Source: a virus (lineage: Duplodnaviria > Caudoviricetes). From it: 42,633 nucleotides of DNA. Shown here one piece after another: positions 11,864-22,570 of the stretch; position 1 is the stretch's first letter, and every line of letters begins with the position of its first letter. The stretch lies in the IMG/VR virus record IMGVR_UViG_3300049004_000034, positions 1 through 42,633 of that record, one strand, 5' to 3'. Under the pieces are notes generated by a model. It searched no databases. It was not told where the DNA came from and saw nothing but the letters and a program-made list of their open reading frames with translations. The translations under genes and the position numbers were made by a program.

Positions 11864-12193
11864 CTAAGTTTTCAGCGTCTCTTCGAGCCTGCGTTTCGCC
11901 TCACGGCGGGCTTCGGCCATTGTGCAGGCCGTTAGATCGCCTCGATTCGGCTGTTCGGCGTAAATCCCTCGCGCCAGTTCCTCCACGTCCACGGCGTTCT
12001 CGGGATCGCCCTGGGGATTCTCCAGCTTCTCGTCTCGCTGGTTGCGAGTCTTCCTGGCCTTCGCCAGGCCGAGCTTCCCTCGTACGTAATCGGAGGTATT
12101 GAGATTGGCTTCTCTCGCCTGTCGGTCGAGCTGGTTCTTCTCCCAGACGACGAGGGGCAAGATGAAACGAACGTTGCGAAGCGGCTTACTCAT
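11864..12193 (-). CDS. Ribbon-helix-helix (MobC/CopG-like) DNA-binding protein
   Basis: VRFILPL..EKNQLDRQAREANLNTSDYVR; ATGA-coupled. Confidence 0.65.
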   Translation of the reverse strand: MSKPLRNVRFILPLVVWEKNQLDRQAREANLNTSDYVRGKLGLAKARKTRNQRDEKLENPQGDPENAVDVEELARGIYAEQPNRGDLTACTMAEARREAKRRLEETLKT

Positions 12194-12528
12194 CGACAGG
12201 CGAAAAGCGCCTGCTTGGCGCATCCGAAGTAAGGCGTCTTTTCGGCTGGCGAGAGGCCCGCCCACTCCCGCCCGCGGTCCGAGGTCCCGGCAGACATCCG
12301 CCGGACGGCTTTGAAGAAGTGCTCGGCCATCGTCTCAACTGCCTCGTCACTCTGTAGCACCTCCTTAAGCCGCTGACGCTCCTGGTCGGCTCCCTGTTTG
12401 CGGAGGGCGGGGGCAACGGCGGCCACTACGTCATCCAGATCACTTTGGTCGCTTTCCACATCGATGACCAGGCCGTTTTTGCATGCCGTCGACCACGCGG
12501 CGGTCAAAGCTTCTTTCGGTAGCTCCAT
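12190..12528 (-). CDS. Hypothetical protein (leaderless)
   Basis: TAGGCT (12535-12540)-N6-ATG. Confidence 0.75.
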   Translation of the reverse strand: MELPKEALTAAWSTACKNGLVIDVESDQSDLDDVVAAVAPALRKQGADQERQRLKEVLQSDEAVETMAEHFFKAVRRMSAGTSDRGREWAGLSPAEKTPYFGCAKQALFACR

Positions 12529-12537
12529 GCCGGGAGC

Positions 12538-12696
12538 CTAGCAGATTGTGTCCATAATCACGACAAGCTCCCAAAGACCGTCTTCCCGTTCGCGCCACTG
12601 CCCAACGTTACGAGACTTCCCGGTCTCGTCCTCGACCTCTACGAATACAAAGGTCGCTCCGGGCTTGCGATCGAAGACGAAGCGAAGCTCTTTCAT
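12538..12696 (-). CDS. Small hypothetical protein
   Basis: MKELRFVFD...FVEVEDETGKS..VGQW; ATGA-coupled to upstream gene. Confidence 0.7.
   Translation of the reverse strand: MKELRFVFDRKPGATFVFVEVEDETGKSRNVGQWREREDGLWELVVIMDTIC
12545..12558. promoter_or_regulatory. Palindromic operator ATTGTG-TC-CATAAT just upstream of the -10 box of the 12528 gene
   Basis: Exact copy of 8662-8675. Confidence 0.65.
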
Positions 12697-13118
12697 GCCG
12701 TTCGATAGGTCGTCGGCGGAACCGGGGCGTAGCCCTCGCGCTGGGGGATCTTCTCCAAGACCTCCCCCTTCTTGACCTTCGCCCATTCCTCTCCGGCCTG
12801 ATGCCTGGCTGTTACGCCGGGCCAGCGTCTCTCAACGTCTCTGTGAAGTTCGGTAATGCGCTCGTAGAGATAGCGTACGTAGTCGTCGCGGGAGGCGTCT
12901 TCAGGAACGAGAAGCGCCTCTACGTCCTCCAGCGCCGGAGGGGTCTCGTGGCCCTCAAATTCAAGGGTGTCTCCCACGCTGGGCGTCGGGCCGACTATGG
13001 AGCAGGTTCGAACGTAATCGGAAGTCTTTTGGCCAAACTCCTCGGCCAGGACCTCAATCCGTTCCTTCTCCTCGGTTGTGGCCCGGAACTTGATGGTCTC
13101 GCTTCTAGTTTCTGTCAT
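12693..13118 (-). CDS. Ribbon-helix-helix (MobC-like) DNA-binding protein
   Basis: TIKFRATTEEKERIEVLAEEFGQKTSDYVR; leaderless TACCGT-N6-ATG. Confidence 0.75.
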   Translation of the reverse strand: MTETRSETIKFRATTEEKERIEVLAEEFGQKTSDYVRTCSIVGPTPSVGDTLEFEGHETPPALEDVEALLVPEDASRDDYVRYLYERITELHRDVERRWPGVTARHQAGEEWAKVKKGEVLEKIPQREGYAPVPPTTYRTA

Positions 13119-13285
13119 GTGGCCACGGTAGCAGAGGACCACAGTGTTTGTGGCCACAGAGGGCTATTGGTTCCCAGCTAGTGCATCTCTGGCTTATAAA
13201 GATATTAGCTACGCACGCACAGCCGACCCACTCCCCCGCCCCCTATGGCTTGCTAGAGCGGTTTGAGGTTGATCAGCGCTCAGGC

Positions 13286-13614: not shown

Positions 13615-13767
13615 CTATTTGACAGGACGAGAGAGAGCATCTTGTTGTAGCAAGTACCTTACGTAAGCGCTAAAGCTGCTTCCGTGGTTCTTAGCCTGTC
13701 TCTCTACCGCAGCGCGTTCCTTAGCGCTCATGCGAAGTCTTAGTTGTCCGTGCTTGTGTTCTGGCAT
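13615..13767 (-). CDS. 50-aa ribbon-helix-helix protein
   Basis: MPEHKHGQLRLRMSAKERAAVERQAKNHGSSFSAYVRYLLQQDALSRPVK. Confidence 0.7.
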   Translation of the reverse strand: MPEHKHGQLRLRMSAKERAAVERQAKNHGSSFSAYVRYLLQQDALSRPVK

Positions 13768-13978: not shown

Positions 13979-14164
13979 ATGAACTGGAGAGAGTTGGAGC
14001 AAGAGGCCATGATCGCGGCCGAGGAAGCACGCCGTCACTCCTTCGAAAGCCACACGATCAACGACCTACGTAGATGGCGTGATGAAGCCGAAAAGGCCGG
14101 TGAGCACGGTGTGGCTGACGAGATAGCCCGAGCGTTTGATCGCAAGATGGCCCCTCATGCTTGA
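13979..14164 (+). CDS. Hypothetical early protein
   Basis: AAGGA RBS; first of tightly coupled small ORFs. Confidence 0.75.
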   Translation: MNWRELEQEAMIAAEEARRHSFESHTINDLRRWRDEAEKAGEHGVADEIARAFDRKMAPHA

Positions 14165-14351
14165 CCAACGCTCACTGGCCGAGAAGAGCGCTGACCTGGA
14201 GCTTGAGATCGTGCGCTCTGACCTAACGGCTCAGGGCGAAGAGCTTGAGAAGGAAGGACTCCACGAGCCTGAAATCCTCGGAGCCTTCTGCGAACAGCTC
14301 GAAGAACGGCTCGCTCACCTGTACCGCGAGCTTTACGAGATCGGAGTCTGA
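14157..14351 (+). CDS. Hypothetical acidic protein
   Basis: Overlaps upstream stop. Confidence 0.7.
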   Translation: MLDQRSLAEKSADLELEIVRSDLTAQGEELEKEGLHEPEILGAFCEQLEERLAHLYRELYEIGV

Positions 14352-14491
14352 TGTTCGGTCTCCGGATCGAAATCTACGCCGATGACCTCAACGGAGTGAC
14401 CTACCAACTTCATGGCAAGGAATCGATCATGTACAAGGCGTGGCAATCCGGATTCGAGGACGAAGCCGACTACATGCCCTTCGGATGCTAG
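14351..14491 (+). CDS. 46-aa hypothetical protein
   Basis: GGAG RBS, TGATG coupling; MFGLRIEIYADDL. Confidence 0.65.
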   Translation: MFGLRIEIYADDLNGVTYQLHGKESIMYKAWQSGFEDEADYMPFGC

Positions 14492-14551
14492 ACGCCAACG
14501 TTTCTCGCAAAGCCCCTGCAGAGCGTCTTAAGTCTAAGAAAGGACAAGACA

Positions 14552-14734
14552 GTGGCTGACACTCAGAAGACAACAAAAGCCGCTAGAGAGGCTCTTACGG
14601 CTTCTCAGAAGATACCAGTTCTTTTGACCAGGGAAGAGTTGGGATATTGCCTTGGCTTTAGTAAGCCGATGGTCAAACTCTCCGACATCAACAGGAAGTT
14701 TAGAGCCGCTCTGGGAAGGCTTGAAAATGACTAA
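14552..14734 (+). CDS. Hypothetical protein
   Basis: AAGGA RBS, GTG start. Confidence 0.65.
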   Translation: MADTQKTTKAAREALTASQKIPVLLTREELGYCLGFSKPMVKLSDINRKFRAALGRLEND

Positions 14735-14891
14735 GACAAATCCTCGCTACACCGTCGAGCTGACGACTGAGGGATGGCAGATCAAGGACAACGAGAAGAA
14801 CAACTACGGCGGAGACGCTTACGGCTCAAAGGCTATCGCTGAAGCTGAGGCAGACGCTGCTAATCGTTTTGAAACGGACTGGCCTAGCTGA
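14727..14891 (+). CDS. Hypothetical protein
   Basis: MTKTNPRYTVE...WQIKD; overlaps upstream stop. Confidence 0.7.
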   Translation: MTKTNPRYTVELTTEGWQIKDNEKNNYGGDAYGSKAIAEAEADAANRFETDWPS

Positions 14892-14962
14892 TGGACCGCT
14901 CTGACGTCCTAGGCATCCTTCTCGGAGCCTGCGTGATCTTCGTCCTGGTTCACTGGATCTAG
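14891..14962 (+). CDS. 23-aa single-TM peptide
   Basis: MDRSDVLGILLGACVIFVLVHWI; coupled at both ends. Confidence 0.55.
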   Translation: MDRSDVLGILLGACVIFVLVHWI

Positions 14963-15141
14963 TGGCCGGGCTAACGCAAGCGGAGTTCGAAGCCTACGCA
15001 GCGCTGGCTTGGAAGTGCAGGCTGATCAACAAAGACCAGTTCGAGCTTCTTCGCAAAGAACACAAGCGCCTTGAGGGCTGGCCTTTCGCACAGGCTGTCA
15101 AGTGCCTCGAAGACGAAATGCGCTTCGAAGGGCGATTGTGA
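14962..15141 (+). CDS. 59-aa hypothetical protein
   Basis: GTG coupled to upstream TAG; GTGA overlap downstream. Confidence 0.6.
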   Translation: MAGLTQAEFEAYAALAWKCRLINKDQFELLRKEHKRLEGWPFAQAVKCLEDEMRFEGRL

Positions 15142-15356
15142 CTGAGCCAAGCGCTGAACAAATCAGAGCCGAACTGAGCCGTATCGGCTACGAGAAGGTC
15201 AAGGCCCGCGGCGCAAAGAACAAGAACGCCGTTGAACTCAAGCAATGGCTGCTTGAGGCTCGGCACAACCCAGAGGTATCGATGAACGAAGCGATCAAGC
15301 TGGCTGGGACGTATTGGTCCGTTGCCAAACACCTAGGGCTACTGGAGGAGAAATGA
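15138..15356 (+). CDS. Hypothetical protein
   Basis: GTGA coupling. Confidence 0.65.
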   Translation: MTEPSAEQIRAELSRIGYEKVKARGAKNKNAVELKQWLLEARHNPEVSMNEAIKLAGTYWSVAKHLGLLEEK

Positions 15357-15562
15357 CGGTAGGCGAGCTACGCAAAGCACTTGAGAAGTACGACCAAGAC
15401 GCCCTTGTGCTCACTCGCGGATACGAGGACGGCTACGTCGCTGCTGCGCCCGAGACCGAGTTCATGGCCTATCAGAAATCAAGCGCCTGGTACTACGGCG
15501 ATTGGTGGGAGGTCATGGATGCCAAAGACGGCCCGGGACAAAAAGCGCTCTACATCGGCTAA
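15353..15562 (+). CDS. Hypothetical protein (MTVGEL...L N-terminus)
   Basis: GGAGGAG RBS; ATGA coupling. Confidence 0.75.
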   Translation: MTVGELRKALEKYDQDALVLTRGYEDGYVAAAPETEFMAYQKSSAWYYGDWWEVMDAKDGPGQKALYIG

Positions 15563-16262: not shown

Positions 16263-16299
16263 ACCCATGATCCTATCTCAAGAACTACGAAAAGAGAAG

Positions 16300-16380
16300 T
16301 GGACGCGCGGGGACTTGAACCCCGATCCGATTGGCGAGACTCGTCAGTCCCGGTCGGCAACTGATCCGCAGATCGCGCCC
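16300..16380 (-). ncRNA. tRNA-like RNA with Ala identity (G3-U70, A73) and non-canonical D/anticodon region
   Basis: Acceptor GGGCGCG/CGCGTCC+A; T-arm CGGGG-TTCAAGT-CCCCG; TACAAT -10 exactly 6 nt before G1; CCA not encoded. Confidence 0.8.
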
Positions 16381-16395
16381 ACCCACATTGTATCG

Positions 16396-16651
16396 AAAAC
16401 TCCACCGCTCGCGGATCAACGGCGAGGAGGCTCTACGAGCGGTGGCATTGCGGGAGAGAACCGCAAAAGGTGCCCCTCGGCTGTCATGACAGCGCTCGCA
16501 ATTAAGCTCGTAAGGGGCATGAAGTCTAAGACGGGTGCTCGATGGTCCCGTTTCGCACGGGACTGTGATCTAGCTGCTCTATCTCCCACTGGAATGTGGG
16601 CGAACCACTCCCGGCGACCGGGTGAGCGCGATCTTATGGCGCTCCAGCTAA
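16396..16651 (-). ncRNA. Candidate highly structured ncRNA
   Basis: Extended -10 TGcTATGTT (16658-16666); 4-way junction closed by TAGCTG/CAGCTA, then four more stems ending in a 10-bp stem + GTTTT. Confidence 0.55.
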
Positions 16652-16672
16652 TGCAGAAACATAGCAGTTCGG

Positions 16673-16765
16673 TCAAGCCCAACCAAAAGCGACGTAACAA
16701 ACCCAGTAGCCCGTATGGATAACAGCGATAGCCAAAAGGGCCACAATCATCCTCCCGTCGCTCAT
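16673..16765 (-). CDS. 30-aa membrane peptide
   Basis: MSDGRMIVALLAIAVIHTGYWVCYVAFGWA; ATGA-coupled. Confidence 0.5.
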   Translation of the reverse strand: MSDGRMIVALLAIAVIHTGYWVCYVAFGWA

Positions 16766-18961: not shown

Positions 18962-19182
18962 GCGGATCTTCCTCGGTGAATGTCAACCACTTCCTTCAGA
19001 TAGAGCGCCCAGAGAGCTGGGCCACCCACGGTGACAAAAGCCGCCTTAACCCACGCAGGAGGTCGATGGTTGTAGTGGCGCTGGACTGGGCCGGACATAA
19101 GCCGCAGCACGGCAACCAAGAGGGCTTGAATCGCTAGCGCGACAAGCCACCAACCGGAGATTGTAATCGTGACGCTATGCAT
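18958..19182 (-). CDS. Small two-TM membrane protein
   Basis: Two hydrophobic stretches. Confidence 0.65.
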   Translation of the reverse strand: MHSVTITISGWWLVALAIQALLVAVLRLMSGPVQRHYNHRPPAWVKAAFVTVGGPALWALYLKEVVDIHRGRSA

Positions 19183-19266
19183 CGCTAACCTTCAAACGCT
19201 CTTCGGCTACCGCGCGCCAGTGCACATAAGCGCGATAGCTGCACCGCCATTCCGTGAGGTAGTGAG

Positions 19267-19779
19267 CTAGTTTAGCTTCAAGTTCGCTTCGATCCTCCTT
19301 ACGAGCCAAATCTTCCATTGCTCAGATCCCTCCTCGCCTGGAACTCTCTCTGCAAAGCGTTCCGTCTTGGCCTTGGTTTTGAAGATCGTATCCCAATCGT
19401 TATAAGCCTTCAACTTGCCGTTCTTCTGCTCGGCTTCGTAGGGATCGAAGGCAGCGCCGCAGATTGCTTTTAGGCAATCGATAAGCCCGTGCTTCCCTCG
19501 CTTCAGGTGGGGGCGGATCAACTTGAAGTCCTCCAGGTCAAACCCAGTCAGAGGATGCCAGCAAGCTAGACGCCACCATTCATGAATGGCTTGCGCCTCT
19601 TCCCAGAGCGGATCGTTAGAGCTGACCTGTTCTTCGGCCCGTTCCAGCTTCGTGATCTTGGCCTTGAGGATGCGGAGATCCTTCTCGTACTGGACCAGGG
19701 TTCGCTCAGCCTGATCGCAACCAGGACACCCCTCATGAACCTCTCCCTGCTCATCTACGACCCGAAGAAGCGGCCTCAC
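19267..19779 (-). CDS. Protein resembling the C-terminal domain of phage replication initiators
   Basis: CLKAICGAAFDPY...YNDWDTIFK...ERF; N-terminal CPGC and coiled coil. Confidence 0.5.
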   Translation of the reverse strand: MRPLLRVVDEQGEVHEGCPGCDQAERTLVQYEKDLRILKAKITKLERAEEQVSSNDPLWEEAQAIHEWWRLACWHPLTGFDLEDFKLIRPHLKRGKHGLIDCLKAICGAAFDPYEAEQKNGKLKAYNDWDTIFKTKAKTERFAERVPGEEGSEQWKIWLVRRIEANLKLN

Positions 19780-19943
19780 GTCCAGTCTGCTTCGGTCTTC
19801 TGCTGATGACGCAGTGCAGCGAACAGACGTGGGTCTGCGCCTAGACGGTCCAGGAGGGGCCAGAGACTACGCAAGCTCTCAGTTTCCCGATGCACCTTCA
19901 CGACCTTCATTTCCCAACGCTGGAGCTGCTCTGAGGCCGTCAC
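19776..19943 (-). CDS. 55-aa hypothetical protein
   Basis: GTGA overlaps at both ends. Confidence 0.6.
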   Translation of the reverse strand: MTASEQLQRWEMKVVKVHRETESLRSLWPLLDRLGADPRLFAALRHQQKTEADWT

Positions 19944-20374
19944 GCGGTAGCCGCAAGCGCGTCGGCCAGGATGTTGAAATGGGCTCCATGGTGGCCCTTG
20001 ACCCAGCTAAATCGCATGGCAGGTAGAACAAGGGCGTCTAGCTCGCGCCAGAGGTCCACGTTCTTGACGCGATGCGGGGACTTGGCTTTCTTGCGCCAGC
20101 CGTTGCGCTTCCAGTTATGCCGCCAGTCGTTGATCCCATCGACCACGTATCTGGAGTCGGAGATCAGTTTGATATGGCGAGGCGATTCCCGGAGTTCGCC
20201 AGTCCACCGCAGAGCTTCGATCATTGCCGTTAGCTCCATGCGATTGTTCGTGGTCTCCTCGTCCGAGCAGCCGGAAGCTTCCCAAATGATTGCGCCTTTC
20301 TCCTCAACTACGAAAGCCCAACCTCCAGGTCCTGGGTTTCCTACACAAGAGCCGTCTGTCCAGATTCTCAGCAT
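19940..20374 (-). CDS. rnhA: Ribonuclease HI
   Basis: TDGSC.GNPGPGGW, TTNNRMEL, SDSRY, WKRNGW, VKNVDLW, WVKGH, N..ADALA; all catalytic acids present; GGGGAG RBS before ATG 20374. Confidence 0.96.
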   Translation of the reverse strand: MLRIWTDGSCVGNPGPGGWAFVVEEKGAIIWEASGCSDEETTNNRMELTAMIEALRWTGELRESPRHIKLISDSRYVVDGINDWRHNWKRNGWRKKAKSPHRVKNVDLWRELDALVLPAMRFSWVKGHHGAHFNILADALAATA

Positions 20375-20399
20375 TCTCTCCCCGTCTCTCCCTGCACTC

Positions 20400-20836
20400 A
20401 CTCCTTCTATCACGTCCCAGACTCAGAAGCTACGTGTTTTCCAAAGCCCCGTAAGGGCCATAGAACCCCCGGCAGCCGTTACGCCCAGGCACTCCCTGCG
20501 CTTAATGAGCCCTGGAACAGACTGGCTGGGTAAGGCAGGCTGTGGAAGGGCTCTTAGGTAAGCCGCTCTCCCTCTGTCCGTTACGACAAAGAGATTGAGA
20601 TCCCGTTCCGCTCCTTCTCCTCTGACCTCCCGGTGACTTCTAACTTCAGAAGCTCCAACTGAGGGTTTGATGTATCTGCTCTCGGGCTAGACTTGCCCAG
20701 AAGGTGCCTTCTCTTCTGATCGCTACTTCAGAAGTCAGCGGCTACATTCGGCCTACCTATGGACTGGTTAACGCCTCTCGGTGGGGGCGCTCCGGGCTTT
20801 ACCGGCAGTGGCTTGACACAAGGTAGGCCGCGTCTG
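20400..20836 (-). other. Long structured non-coding region, candidate RNA-primed replication origin
   Basis: No convincing ORF; inverted repeat 20749-20758/20821-20830; ACTTCAGAAG repeats; minus strand ends GGGGG-TT-CTATGG...TGGAAAAC. Confidence 0.4.
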
Positions 20837-21079
20837 CTACGCTGCGGCTGTCGATCCTTTCTGGCGAGTGGGTTGACAATCTTTGAGAGGCCGTCCTTCG
20901 GGGCGGTCTTTCTCTTTTGAGGCAAGCTGCTTCCTGAAAGCCGCGTGAGCCATCTCCTGCCACGAGAACGGCCTAGAAGCCCGCGCGAGCCATTTCTCCC
21001 ACGCCTTCTCAGCCTCAGATCCCTCCCAGCGCTTCTGCGCCGCTAAGATCTGCTCCAGTAGATCGGAGGTTTCAAGCAT
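20837..21079 (-). CDS. Hypothetical protein
   Basis: MLETSDLLEQIL; overlaps upstream stop. Confidence 0.6.
   Translation of the reverse strand: MLETSDLLEQILAAQKRWEGSEAEKAWEKWLARASRPFSWQEMAHAAFRKQLASKEKDRPEGRPLKDCQPTRQKGSTAAA
20849..20918 (+). ncRNA. Candidate ~70-nt antisense RNA
   Basis: TTGACA (20813) and TGcTACGCT (-10 at 20838-20843); hairpin 20849-20878; terminator stem with cUUCGg loop and U-tract; GU pairs only work on +. Confidence 0.6.
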
Positions 21080-21281
21080 GTGCCTTGACCTTCGCCCGGC
21101 TCTCCACGAAGAGGCGCTTCTCAACGCGAACTTTCGAATGCGGGTTCTCAACGCCTCCCGTGCACCACTCGCGCATGGAGTTGCCCATCCCGTGCCTAGC
21201 CACCTTTCCAATCCGATGGCAAGTCGGCTCCGGACAAACTGGGAGACAGACATACAGCCGTTTGTGCACGCGCTCAGGCAT
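21072..21281 (-). CDS. Cys/His-rich small protein
   Basis: YVCLPVCPEPTC...WC...H; TAGGAT upstream. Confidence 0.65.
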   Translation of the reverse strand: MPERVHKRLYVCLPVCPEPTCHRIGKVARHGMGNSMREWCTGGVENPHSKVRVEKRLFVESRAKVKAHA

Positions 21282-21314
21282 CAGAGAACCATCCTAACAT
21301 GCCTCGGCGCGCTT

Positions 21315-21350
21315 AAAAGCCCGCCACCCTCAACCAAGAGAGCAGCGGGC
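21315..21350 (-). terminator. Intrinsic terminator
   Basis: GCCCGCTGCTCTC-TTGGTT-GAGGGTGGCGGGC-TTTT. Confidence 0.75.
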
Positions 21351-21406
21351 CGGTCCCATCGTCGTCAGCGGTGCGTAGATAGTCTTGAGAGCTTCTGTTG
21401 TAGCTC

Positions 21407-21664
21407 CTAAGGAGCGTTCTCGTCTTTTGAAGGAGCACATAGCGTCGCGGGCCTACGGGGCCTTGTAGAGCCCCCTACGACTCGCTCTGCGTAATCGGCT
21501 GCTTCTCGTTCGGTCGTGCTATTGGGACCGTAGTAGCACGGATGCTTGAACTTCTCGGCGGCGTGTCGGCTGCCTGCCGTCCAACCCCGCAACCATGCGG
21601 TTTCGAGTTCTTCTCGAAGGAGCACTTCAATCCCCTCGGTTCCAATCAGATCCTCAATTGTCAT
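21407..21664 (-). CDS. Hypothetical protein
   Basis: Operon continuity. Confidence 0.7.
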   Translation of the reverse strand: MTIEDLIGTEGIEVLLREELETAWLRGWTAGSRHAAEKFKHPCYYGPNSTTEREAADYAERVVGGSTRPRRPATLCAPSKDENAP

Positions 21665-22175
21665 GAGAAGCCATCCACTTTTCGATTCGGGCCAGGAGGA
21701 TCGCTCCAGTGCCTAGCTTAATCTGAGCGTCATTAATCACTCGGCCGCCATCCTCAGGACCGCGACCCTTGAAAAGGGTTTCAGCTTGAACAAGGGCTTC
21801 GTCGTCCTGGCGCTGCCACTCCTCCAGCCAGGGCCCTAGCTGGGCCACTGGGAAGAGTTCTCCGAGAGGCCAAGAGGTTATGCCGCCTTGGAAAGCATCA
21901 ACTTCAGGGCTCTCTCGCTCCCAGCCGATATCGCCCAGGAGGTTGGAGAGAGCTGCGACCTGGCGAGCAGCGTCGGAGCACTCTGCATAGATCTTGGTTG
22001 AGATCCGGTGGTCCAAACGTTGAGCAAGCCTTTGAATTGAATCCAAAGCATGGCATGCGACGTGGTCTCTCTCCTCTCGACTGAGGCGAAAGGCTTCTCC
22101 TCGCAGGTTCTCGGGTCGCATGGCCTCTCCGATCTCTTCGAAACTGAGCCCTGTGAATTTGGAATTCATACTCAA
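21654..22175 (-). CDS. Hypothetical protein
   Basis: GGAGG RBS; start at 22175 or 22169. Confidence 0.75.
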   Translation of the reverse strand: MSMNSKFTGLSFEEIGEAMRPENLRGEAFRLSREERDHVACHALDSIQRLAQRLDHRISTKIYAECSDAARQVAALSNLLGDIGWERESPEVDAFQGGITSWPLGELFPVAQLGPWLEEWQRQDDEALVQAETLFKGRGPEDGGRVINDAQIKLGTGAILLARIEKWMASHDN

Positions 22176-22570
22176 GCCTCCACGGGACGGCCGGTGGCTC
22201 GGATGATCTTAGCTATCTGGCTTGGCTCCTTGGCAAACGCATCGCGTCCGTCGAGTACTTCTGCGATCTGATCCAGAGCCACCGAGTCTCCGATTTCAGC
22301 CAGAAGATCTTCGTTGATCCCGTAAAGATGTTCGGCAGCCCCGCGTCTGGGGATTTCATTGAGAAGCTTCAGGGCTCCCTCGTCCCTTAGCTTCATTACG
22401 TGGTAGCTGACGCTGCCAATCGGTCGTTTGAGCTGCTTGTGCAGCCCCACGGGGCTTACGAGGCGACCTTGGGCGTGAGCCTCACGAGCTGCCTGGAGGA
22501 CCTCTCGCCTGATCTCGTGGCCGTTGATCACGGCCAGACGCTCTGCGATAGATTTCTCGGGCTTAGACAT
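22172..22570 (-). CDS. ArsR-like winged-helix transcriptional regulator
   Basis: H.IRREVL...SPVGLHKQLKRPIGSVSYHVMKL...RRGAAEHLY. Confidence 0.85.
   Translation of the reverse strand: MSKPEKSIAERLAVINGHEIRREVLQAAREAHAQGRLVSPVGLHKQLKRPIGSVSYHVMKLRDEGALKLLNEIPRRGAAEHLYGINEDLLAEIGDSVALDQIAEVLDGRDAFAKEPSQIAKIIRATGRPVEA

Follow-up and report, generated by a model that had tools for sequence, protein, structure and literature searches.

How a tailed phage without recognisable replication enzymes begins to copy its DNA is the question raised by the IMG/VR virus record IMGVR_UViG_3300049004_000034, whose 42,633 nucleotides (nt) were analysed at full length and are called the window here. The window is a complete circular phage genome of about 42.5 kb (a terminal repeat was found) that is podovirus-like, with profile matches to a P22-like portal, a terminase and an SU10-type adaptor; nearly all of its genes lie on the minus strand, and the sequences of this phage come from soil metagenomes. 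A first-pass annotation of the DNA had noted the lack of a recognisable polymerase, primase, helicase or integrase and had proposed a ColE1-like, RNA-primed origin with an RNase HI supplied by the phage. The first point was confirmed, in that none of the 68 + 17 open reading frames (ORFs) of the window matches such an enzyme in Pfam or PHROG; the one exception, weak and below the cut-off, is a 3'-5' exonuclease C-terminal domain in an ORF of 57 amino acids (aa). As for the second, we found at the head of the replication operon a real, conserved and uncatalogued module that joins an antisense unit to a non-coding body (20458-20918). Its most likely function is that of an RNA-primed origin, ahead of a leader, an oop-like regulator or a DNA site, and sequence and analogy together lead us to give an antisense-controlled origin of this kind a little less than an even chance.

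The locus is covered in six related IMG/VR genomes (G001-G006, five of them complete) and in two metagenome fragments (L011 and L016); the eight related loci taken from these, together with the window, are referred to as the nine loci. Four more contigs with the window's module type were obtained from public sequencing runs (X3-X6; X5 and X6 are near-identical). Excluded from the counts were L009, L013, L015, L017, L018 and others, all repeats of G001-G006; L008, L010, L012 and L014, which end before the module; L002/L035, which carry an unrelated RNase H; and L025-L029, which are 22-residue matches. No RNA dataset was present among the sequencing runs listed as carrying the phage, and the parts of the literature searched held no description of this phage group or module. 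The genome collection searched contained no host-borne copy of two marker proteins, and the promoter type, the guanine plus cytosine (G+C) content and the habitat are our only pointers to a presumably actinobacterial host.

The body of the module, which is of type A in the window (20458-20836, minus strand; predicted primer or leader RNA), holds no gene and is kept in relatives. A region of about 450 base pairs (bp) lacking a credible ORF had been reported at first pass, and this was borne out: there is none in 20376-20836, every locus has 223-411 nt without a gene after the TAG stop codon of the preceding ORF, and the bodies of type A relatives carry frame-breaking insertions or deletions of 1 and 5 nt. 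Could the body still be a degenerate or frameshifted coding sequence? One minus-strand frame does contain an 88-codon stop-free stretch without a clear start. The insertions and deletions in close relatives, an in-frame stop in L005 for the candidate frame of type B, and conservation above that of real genes largely refute this idea, which we regard as very improbable.

The bodies fall into four types: A (window, L016 and X3-X6), B (L004, L005, L019 and L022), C (L007 and L011) and D (L006). Local alignment scores are 9-13 across types, that is, no similarity, versus 47-230 within types. The window body is 73% identical to that of L016 over 318 nt, and the type A body is present in the four contigs of runs X3-X6; no other IMG/VR contig carries the type A core pattern. 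The body is better conserved than the neighbouring initiator gene both in all six type B pairs (69-96% versus 60-85%) and in the type A pair (75% versus 66%). Judged by its sequence, the body is a real, modular non-coding element.

Whether this element works as RNA or as DNA is less plain. Described at first pass as long and structured, the window region (551 nt) folds like its shuffles (z = -0.82 and -0.88), so that this was not borne out in thermodynamic terms; for local stretches of the minus strand, z falls as low as -2.2 to -2.3. An inverted repeat of 10 bp is present at 20749-20758/20821-20830 exactly as written there, but it was rejected as a conserved switch, being kept neither in L016 nor in X4, a contig with a loose end at 20818. 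In X3, the two longest local repeats, I1 and I23, retain their pairs 20509/20551 and 20639/20732 through two double changes, and one double change in type B keeps a predicted pair. In X5/X6, one change is tolerated only as G-U on the minus strand, and two others would break a minus-strand pair. RNAalifold gave a weak consensus for the four type B sequences (covariation term -2.4), which was used only for one hairpin. The body might act as DNA, as a protein-bound origin or a promoter/operator block, with the antisense unit as a separate regulator. Strong conservation of primary sequence within types at ordinary folding energy fits such a site, as does a TGTCAA-containing 16-mer that occurs twice in the window, 60 nt apart, and in inverted form in L011. 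However, no iteron family was found in the region, four unrelated bodies accompany one common set of phage proteins, and the double changes in X3 and type B keep predicted pairs, so that we consider a DNA site quite unlikely.

The second part of the module is its antisense unit. The predicted antisense promoter (20813-20843, plus strand) consists of a -35 box TTGACA (20813-20818), a 19-nt spacer and an extended -10 box TG-C-TACGCT (20835-20843); a generic promoter scan missed it because of the long spacer. The predicted RNA of about 70 nt (20850-20918, plus strand) comprises a variable 5' hairpin (about 20850-20877) and an intrinsic terminator (20885-20912) with a T tail. Promoter, variable 5' hairpin and terminator are common to eight of the nine loci, where a TGnTAnnnT box faces the terminator hairpin at 60-67 nt while the spacer sequence changes. 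Type A has the TTGACA box 19 nt ahead of the -10 box; in run X4 both are retained, with a different spacer of 19 nt between them. The 5' half of the predicted RNA differs in sequence among loci and folds better than shuffles on the antisense strand in 8/8 (z = -1.0 to -3.1, versus +0.2 to -1.8 on the sense strand). A two-hairpin antisense RNA, as proposed at first pass, is thus predicted from sequence plus conservation, but its start most likely lies near 20850 and not at 20818. We regard the antisense unit as well supported and its transcript as predicted. Rfam returned nothing at gathering score in the window or in the eight other loci; a blastn search of 72,556 plasmids with the region yielded nothing beyond short terminator matches, with no Vibrio record among them, and one of phages only matches to the terminator. 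Separately, the sequence around the window's antisense -35 box recurs in inverted orientation in L011 (1434-1464; 81% over 32 nt), just before its CTATGG, and is able to pair there with the antisense target region (12/200 shuffles).

On the sense strand, the module is preceded by two small ORFs. The first gene after the putative sense promoter encodes 69 aa (21072-21281, minus strand), has homologous ORFs in relatives and matches no family. The second, a variable ORF of 80 aa (20837-21079, minus strand), is covered at its 3' end by the predicted antisense RNA and terminates at a TAG within the complement of the antisense -10 box. Seven of the nine loci end the upstream ORF at this TAG, even though three different frames are used across the hairpin; in L007 the stop comes 10 nt before it, and in L016 the frame stays open beyond it. 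That the same TAG is reached through three hairpin reading frames suggests selection keeping ribosomes out of what follows, and a ribosome that leaves at TAG 20839 would allow the body to fold.

The position of the module ahead of the replication genes recalls the gene order cII-oop-O of phage lambda. The locus might accordingly hold two separate things, an oop-like antisense RNA that destabilises the message of the upstream ORF and an independent non-coding RNA in the body. In support, the whole of the predicted antisense RNA overlaps the 3' end of the upstream ORF in seven of the nine loci, just as the 77-nt OOP RNA acts near the 3' end of cII (PMC5415839, in excerpt), and L006 has a body and no terminator hairpin. 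The upstream ORF, however, is highly variable between relatives, is read in three frames through the hairpin, and has no family match that would answer the question of a CII-type activator. The antisense -35 box lies inside the body and ties the two parts together, and the distance from the TAG to CTATG, the word that ends the module, is held at 223-261 nt in types B, C and D (in the window it is 375 nt; distances run to the first CTATG beyond the body, and L005 and L006 have a second). Two independent elements are therefore unlikely in our estimate.

From where would the sense RNA start? A candidate extended -10 promoter of the replication operon (TGnTAnnnT, 21291-21299, minus strand) follows directly on a terminator-like hairpin ending near 21317, and such a box is found 300-1100 nt upstream of the hairpin/module in all eight loci examined; the whole minus strand of the window has 13 of them. 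With this box present in 8/8 loci, the long sense RNA would be the operon message, about 830 nt to CTATGG, and not a dedicated primer transcript. The first-pass annotation had identified no dedicated primer promoter, and none was found, although the box at 21299-21291 now offers a candidate sense promoter. No minus-strand terminator was detected in 19000-22000 by a scan that depends on a T-run and overlooked the hairpin near 21317 as well, so that weak terminators are possible.

At the other end, the module closes on G5-TT-CTATGG (20458-20470, minus strand), which is invariant in the contigs. The 27 bases 20458-20484 show no difference in 4/4 contigs of X3-X6, and homology in X3, X5 and X6 ends exactly at the last G of CTATGG (20458). 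The small hairpin and A-run that come after it (20436-20457, minus strand) lie outside the conserved module, being kept only in X4 and replaced in X3, X5 and X6. The complete motif G5-TT-CTATGG-hairpin-A-run is present exactly as first described and arises in 1/20,000 shuffles of the region, a figure for a motif defined post hoc. CTATG ends the module in eight of the nine loci and CTATGG in six. In the window, about 390 nt separate CTATGG from the predicted RNA start; in ColE1 (NC_001371) CTATGG stands directly before the A-run. CT precedes only 8/137 other ATG starts in these genomes, and generic start context therefore does not explain CTATG, which in the window, X4, L006 and L007 opens only a short, unconserved ORF.

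The boundary word nevertheless bears on another explanation, namely that the module is a long operon leader in which the antisense RNA controls downstream genes by attenuation or start-codon masking, with CTATG as the start of a gene or of a leader peptide, sequestered by helical pairing with CATAG. The module stands directly ahead of a tightly coupled operon that holds the initiator gene, and in type B (L005, L019 and L022) CTATG supplies the ATG of a conserved gene, preceded at 8 nt by an AGAAG-like box. A CATAG partner is present in 6/8 bodies, and in L006 CTATGG closes a helix of 10 Watson-Crick pairs (4/1000 shuffles) that fits start-codon masking. Short cis-antisense RNAs ahead of replication genes are also known from the rep leaders of pT181, pIP501, R1 and IncI/IncB, and such mechanisms are listed for pT181/pIP501, R1 and IncI replicons in the excerpted PMC5415839. 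Yet no sense-strand terminator that could serve as an attenuator was found in the module, target-to-body duplexes are no better than shuffles in 7/8 (L011, 12/200), and the CATAG helix is within chance in 7/8 (98-663 of 1000 shuffles). By equilibrium folding, blocking the target barely alters start-site accessibility in 7/8; moreover, unlike in the rep leaders, the gene after the module is not the initiator and differs from genome to genome. A leader is hence a possible reading, if a rather doubtful one.

If the module is instead an RNA-primed origin, its layout should be compared with known ones. Like ColE1, it sets an antisense RNA against the 5' part of a longer RNA with CTATGG at the 3' end, preceded in type A by a G-run. 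Unlike ColE1, whose RNA I has three stem-loops in about 110 nt, the window has two hairpins in about 70 nt, a 17-nt insert between CTATGG and the A-run, and no dedicated primer promoter next to the antisense terminator; neither the G-run nor the A-run is conserved in relatives. ColE1 itself relies on a persistent R-loop, on cleavage by RNase H and on Pol I. The MRB (marine RNA-based) plasmids of Vibrionaceae (prototype pB1067) are closer: according to the excerpts of PMC3035462, a 68-nt two-hairpin RNA I lies in a conserved 110-bp core, RNA II extends to about 360 nt past the start of RNA I, and in one member the core is the only shared part. For autonomous replication of such plasmids, an ORF-free stretch of about 500 bp suffices. 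The window module likewise has as its conserved core a predicted counter-transcript of about 70 nt with two hairpins and its own promoter and terminator, followed by 360-390 nt of ORF-free sequence, with bodies unrelated between members. The likeness is one of layout. The window module differs in that it lies inside an operon, overlaps a small ORF and is followed by an initiator without a head, and the window belongs to a soil phage of 58% G+C.

RNA-based origins in phages have experimental precedent in RedRock, Gladiator and Alma, and the non-RepA, RNA-based prophage origins of cluster A mycobacteriophages also include LadyBird and Et2Brutus (PMC7157519, in part). In the first three origins (L060-L062), a counter-promoter and a terminator are predicted, beyond which the ori continues for 370-430 nt; they resemble the putative origin of the window in this and in being phage-borne, ORF-free and about 600 bp long. 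As in the cluster A phages with such origins, no integrase (0/5 genomes) and no RepA was found, the latter in profile scans. Their predicted counter-transcript has one hairpin versus two in the window module, their origins lie beside parABS in the integrase slot whereas the window locus lies in the replication operon without par genes, and CTATG does not occur in the RedRock, Gladiator and Alma origins. Overall, the layout matches MRB and cluster A origins better than ColE1. As a side observation, the predicted counter-RNA of L060-L062 is about 55 nt, faces parA and is not described in the sections of PMC7157519 that were available.

The genes that follow the module speak to its partners. RNase HI (19940-20374, minus strand; possible longer start GTG 20413) is intact, as had been reported, with a PF00075 score of 127.2 bits versus a cut-off of 25.8 and visible acidic and His residues that we take to be catalytic. 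It had also been proposed as part of the origin, with synteny in relatives as a check, and here the comparison went the other way. RNase H is absent from all six related genomes (G001-G006), and in two contigs with the same module the type A body is joined to the next gene without it (X4, joint 19932-20404; X5, joint 19932-20458). A phage-supplied RNase H was for these reasons rejected as a core part. Since relatives lack it, the enzyme may help the module but cannot be required, and it is best seen as an accessory insertion; among phages, relatives of the enzyme are widespread (1,727 records, none reaching 60% identity).

Next comes an ORF of 55 aa (19776-19943, minus strand), common to some relatives and without a Pfam match, and then the gene at 19267-19779 (minus strand), which had been noted as resembling an initiator C-terminus. 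Homologues and fold matches bore this out. Its product, with a CxxC motif, a coiled coil and a DnaD/G39P-like helical domain, belongs to a family of 392 clusters and is a likely helicase recruiter: among 29 longer homologues scanned, 15 carry a DnaB N-terminal domain and none a helix-turn-helix (HTH). The protein itself has no Pfam match. The domain was modelled with a predicted local distance difference test score (pLDDT) of 92; in the viral Foldseek search, the model matches the RSK1 replication protein (probability 1.0, E 0.007) and HTH-initiators, and no match at E 0.001 was obtained against the PDB. The top two fold matches are G39P (Z 4.8, root-mean-square deviation 2.6, 64 residues aligned) and DnaD (Z 4.4, 2.5, 62 aligned). 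Residues 58-140 weakly resemble in fold the DnaD/SPP1 G39P-like C-terminal domain of phage O-type initiators, but the N-terminal winged helix of those proteins is replaced by the CxxC motif and coiled coil, and many homologues, unlike O-type initiators, carry the DnaB N-terminal domain. Profile scans found no origin-binding initiator. A winged-helix gene at 22172-22570, which has two subtypes that do not follow module type, could be a separate initiator head. Two further observations concern this family. A large unnamed group fuses a stand-alone DnaB N-terminal domain to the headless initiator domain (P0037, P0063, P0070, P0078, P0079, P0103, P0105 and others), and HNH-type ORFs occur at the 3' end of the initiator-domain gene (L001, 6497-7145; L019, 9280-9801), with a second copy of that 3' end after the HNH insertion in L001.

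How, then, might the module start replication? We infer all transcripts, the R-loop, the priming and the helicase loading in the following scheme. Host RNA polymerase would transcribe the minus strand from 21299-21291 through the two small ORFs and the module. The ribosome would leave at TAG 20839, so that the 380-nt body is free to fold and to stay hybridised to its template near CTATGG as an R-loop. DNA synthesis would then be primed from the 3' end of the RNA, either as it stands or after cleavage by an RNase H, while the 19267-19779 protein would stand in for the missing origin-binding domain and recruit the host helicase to the displaced strand. Finally, the 70-nt counter-transcript from 20850 would bind the 5' part of the RNA and determine how often the origin fires, with a specificity that differs from phage to phage through the variable loop. 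Priming chemistry is left unresolved for both the MRB and the cluster A origins in the available parts of PMC3035462 and PMC7157519.

Several results weigh against this scheme, besides the start codons of type B and the helix of L006. In folding energy the bodies do not stand out from shuffles (sense z -1.9 to +2.0, nine loci), and by equilibrium folding most loci show little change downstream when the antisense target is blocked. CTATG is missing from L016, the nearest type A locus; only type A has a G-run of at least 5 immediately ahead of CTATG; an A-run follows within 10 nt in 4/8; and the sixth base is C in L019 and L022. RNase H is not linked to the module, and the fold matches to G39P and DnaD are middling (Z below 5). 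The nine loci show no similarity to the RedRock, Gladiator and Alma origins (best 3/60 shuffles). The window is not similar to ColE1 RNA II either (score 13 versus 11.7 +/- 1.5, reached by 46/200 shuffles), nor does any of the nine loci rise above 25/200 shuffles, and the Rfam RNAI model RF00106 scores 17.8 and 16.3 bits versus a cut-off of 47. With the G-run, the A-run and the 10-bp switch not conserved, the ColE1-specific details of the first-pass annotation fall away together with RNase H, whereas its general direction is reasonable, and the RNA I/RNA II-like layout, the non-coding character of the region, the CTATG end and the headless initiator stand in relatives. There are also no partition genes that would support the plasmid-like prophage it had envisaged: tyrosine integrase, serine resolvase, DnaB-N and ParA (PF13614) were found in none of the six frames of the five genomes searched, no ParB match appeared in profile scans of window and relative ORFs, and the 87 ORFs peculiar to relatives add no replication enzyme. 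Cumulative GC skew, suggested as a check, turns near 16.5 and 24 kb and not at 20.4 kb, and fourfold-degenerate skew shows no switch at this locus; both are uninformative for a one-way origin.

Other conserved elements were noted in the window. Short linkers are conserved at joints between variable genes (20413-20400 and 21100-21076, with the same motifs in relatives), which suggests cassette exchange by micro-homology in the replication operon. An 82-nt two-hairpin element (16386-16467, minus strand), 95-100% identical in all six relatives and the best conserved non-coding DNA seen, ends in a TAnnnT box whose inner bases vary, and a conserved 53-nt block with an extended -10 box lies at 16625-16677 (minus strand). 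Both immediately precede the probable small terminase gene, close to the point where GC skew peaks, and are possibly a late promoter, a packaging site or another origin candidate. Directly after the TAnnnT box, ARAGORN predicts a transfer RNA-like gene with an unassignable anticodon (16299-16380, minus strand), in a slot that is variable in relatives. A divergent run of very small plus-strand ORFs without family matches (13979-15562) is flanked by ribbon-helix-helix genes (12693-13157, 13615-13767 and, weakly, 11864-12265) and could be an early host-takeover or immunity region.

Taken together, we tentatively propose that these integrase-less, par-less soil podoviruses combine one antisense unit, at least four unrelated and exchangeable primer RNAs ending in CTATG, and a DnaD/G39P-like initiator that makes the R-loop a helicase-loading site, a combination to which we give roughly a one-in-three standing. 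They would form a natural series, with one control unit, four bodies, a common 3' word and a partner protein lacking an origin-binding domain, and the proposal predicts an RNA-DNA junction just after CTATGG and loop-specific exclusion between phages. A possible use would be as small orthogonal replicons for soil bacteria. Should the leader explanation prove right, the module would remain a previously uncatalogued antisense switch. ColE1, MRB plasmids and the prophages of cluster A mycobacteriophages already provide examples of RNA-primed origins; the module described here would explain how replication starts in a phage with no recognisable initiator head, primase or helicase and, if the proposal is true, would represent RNA-plus-protein hybrid initiation for the main, and not only the prophage, replication of a tailed phage.

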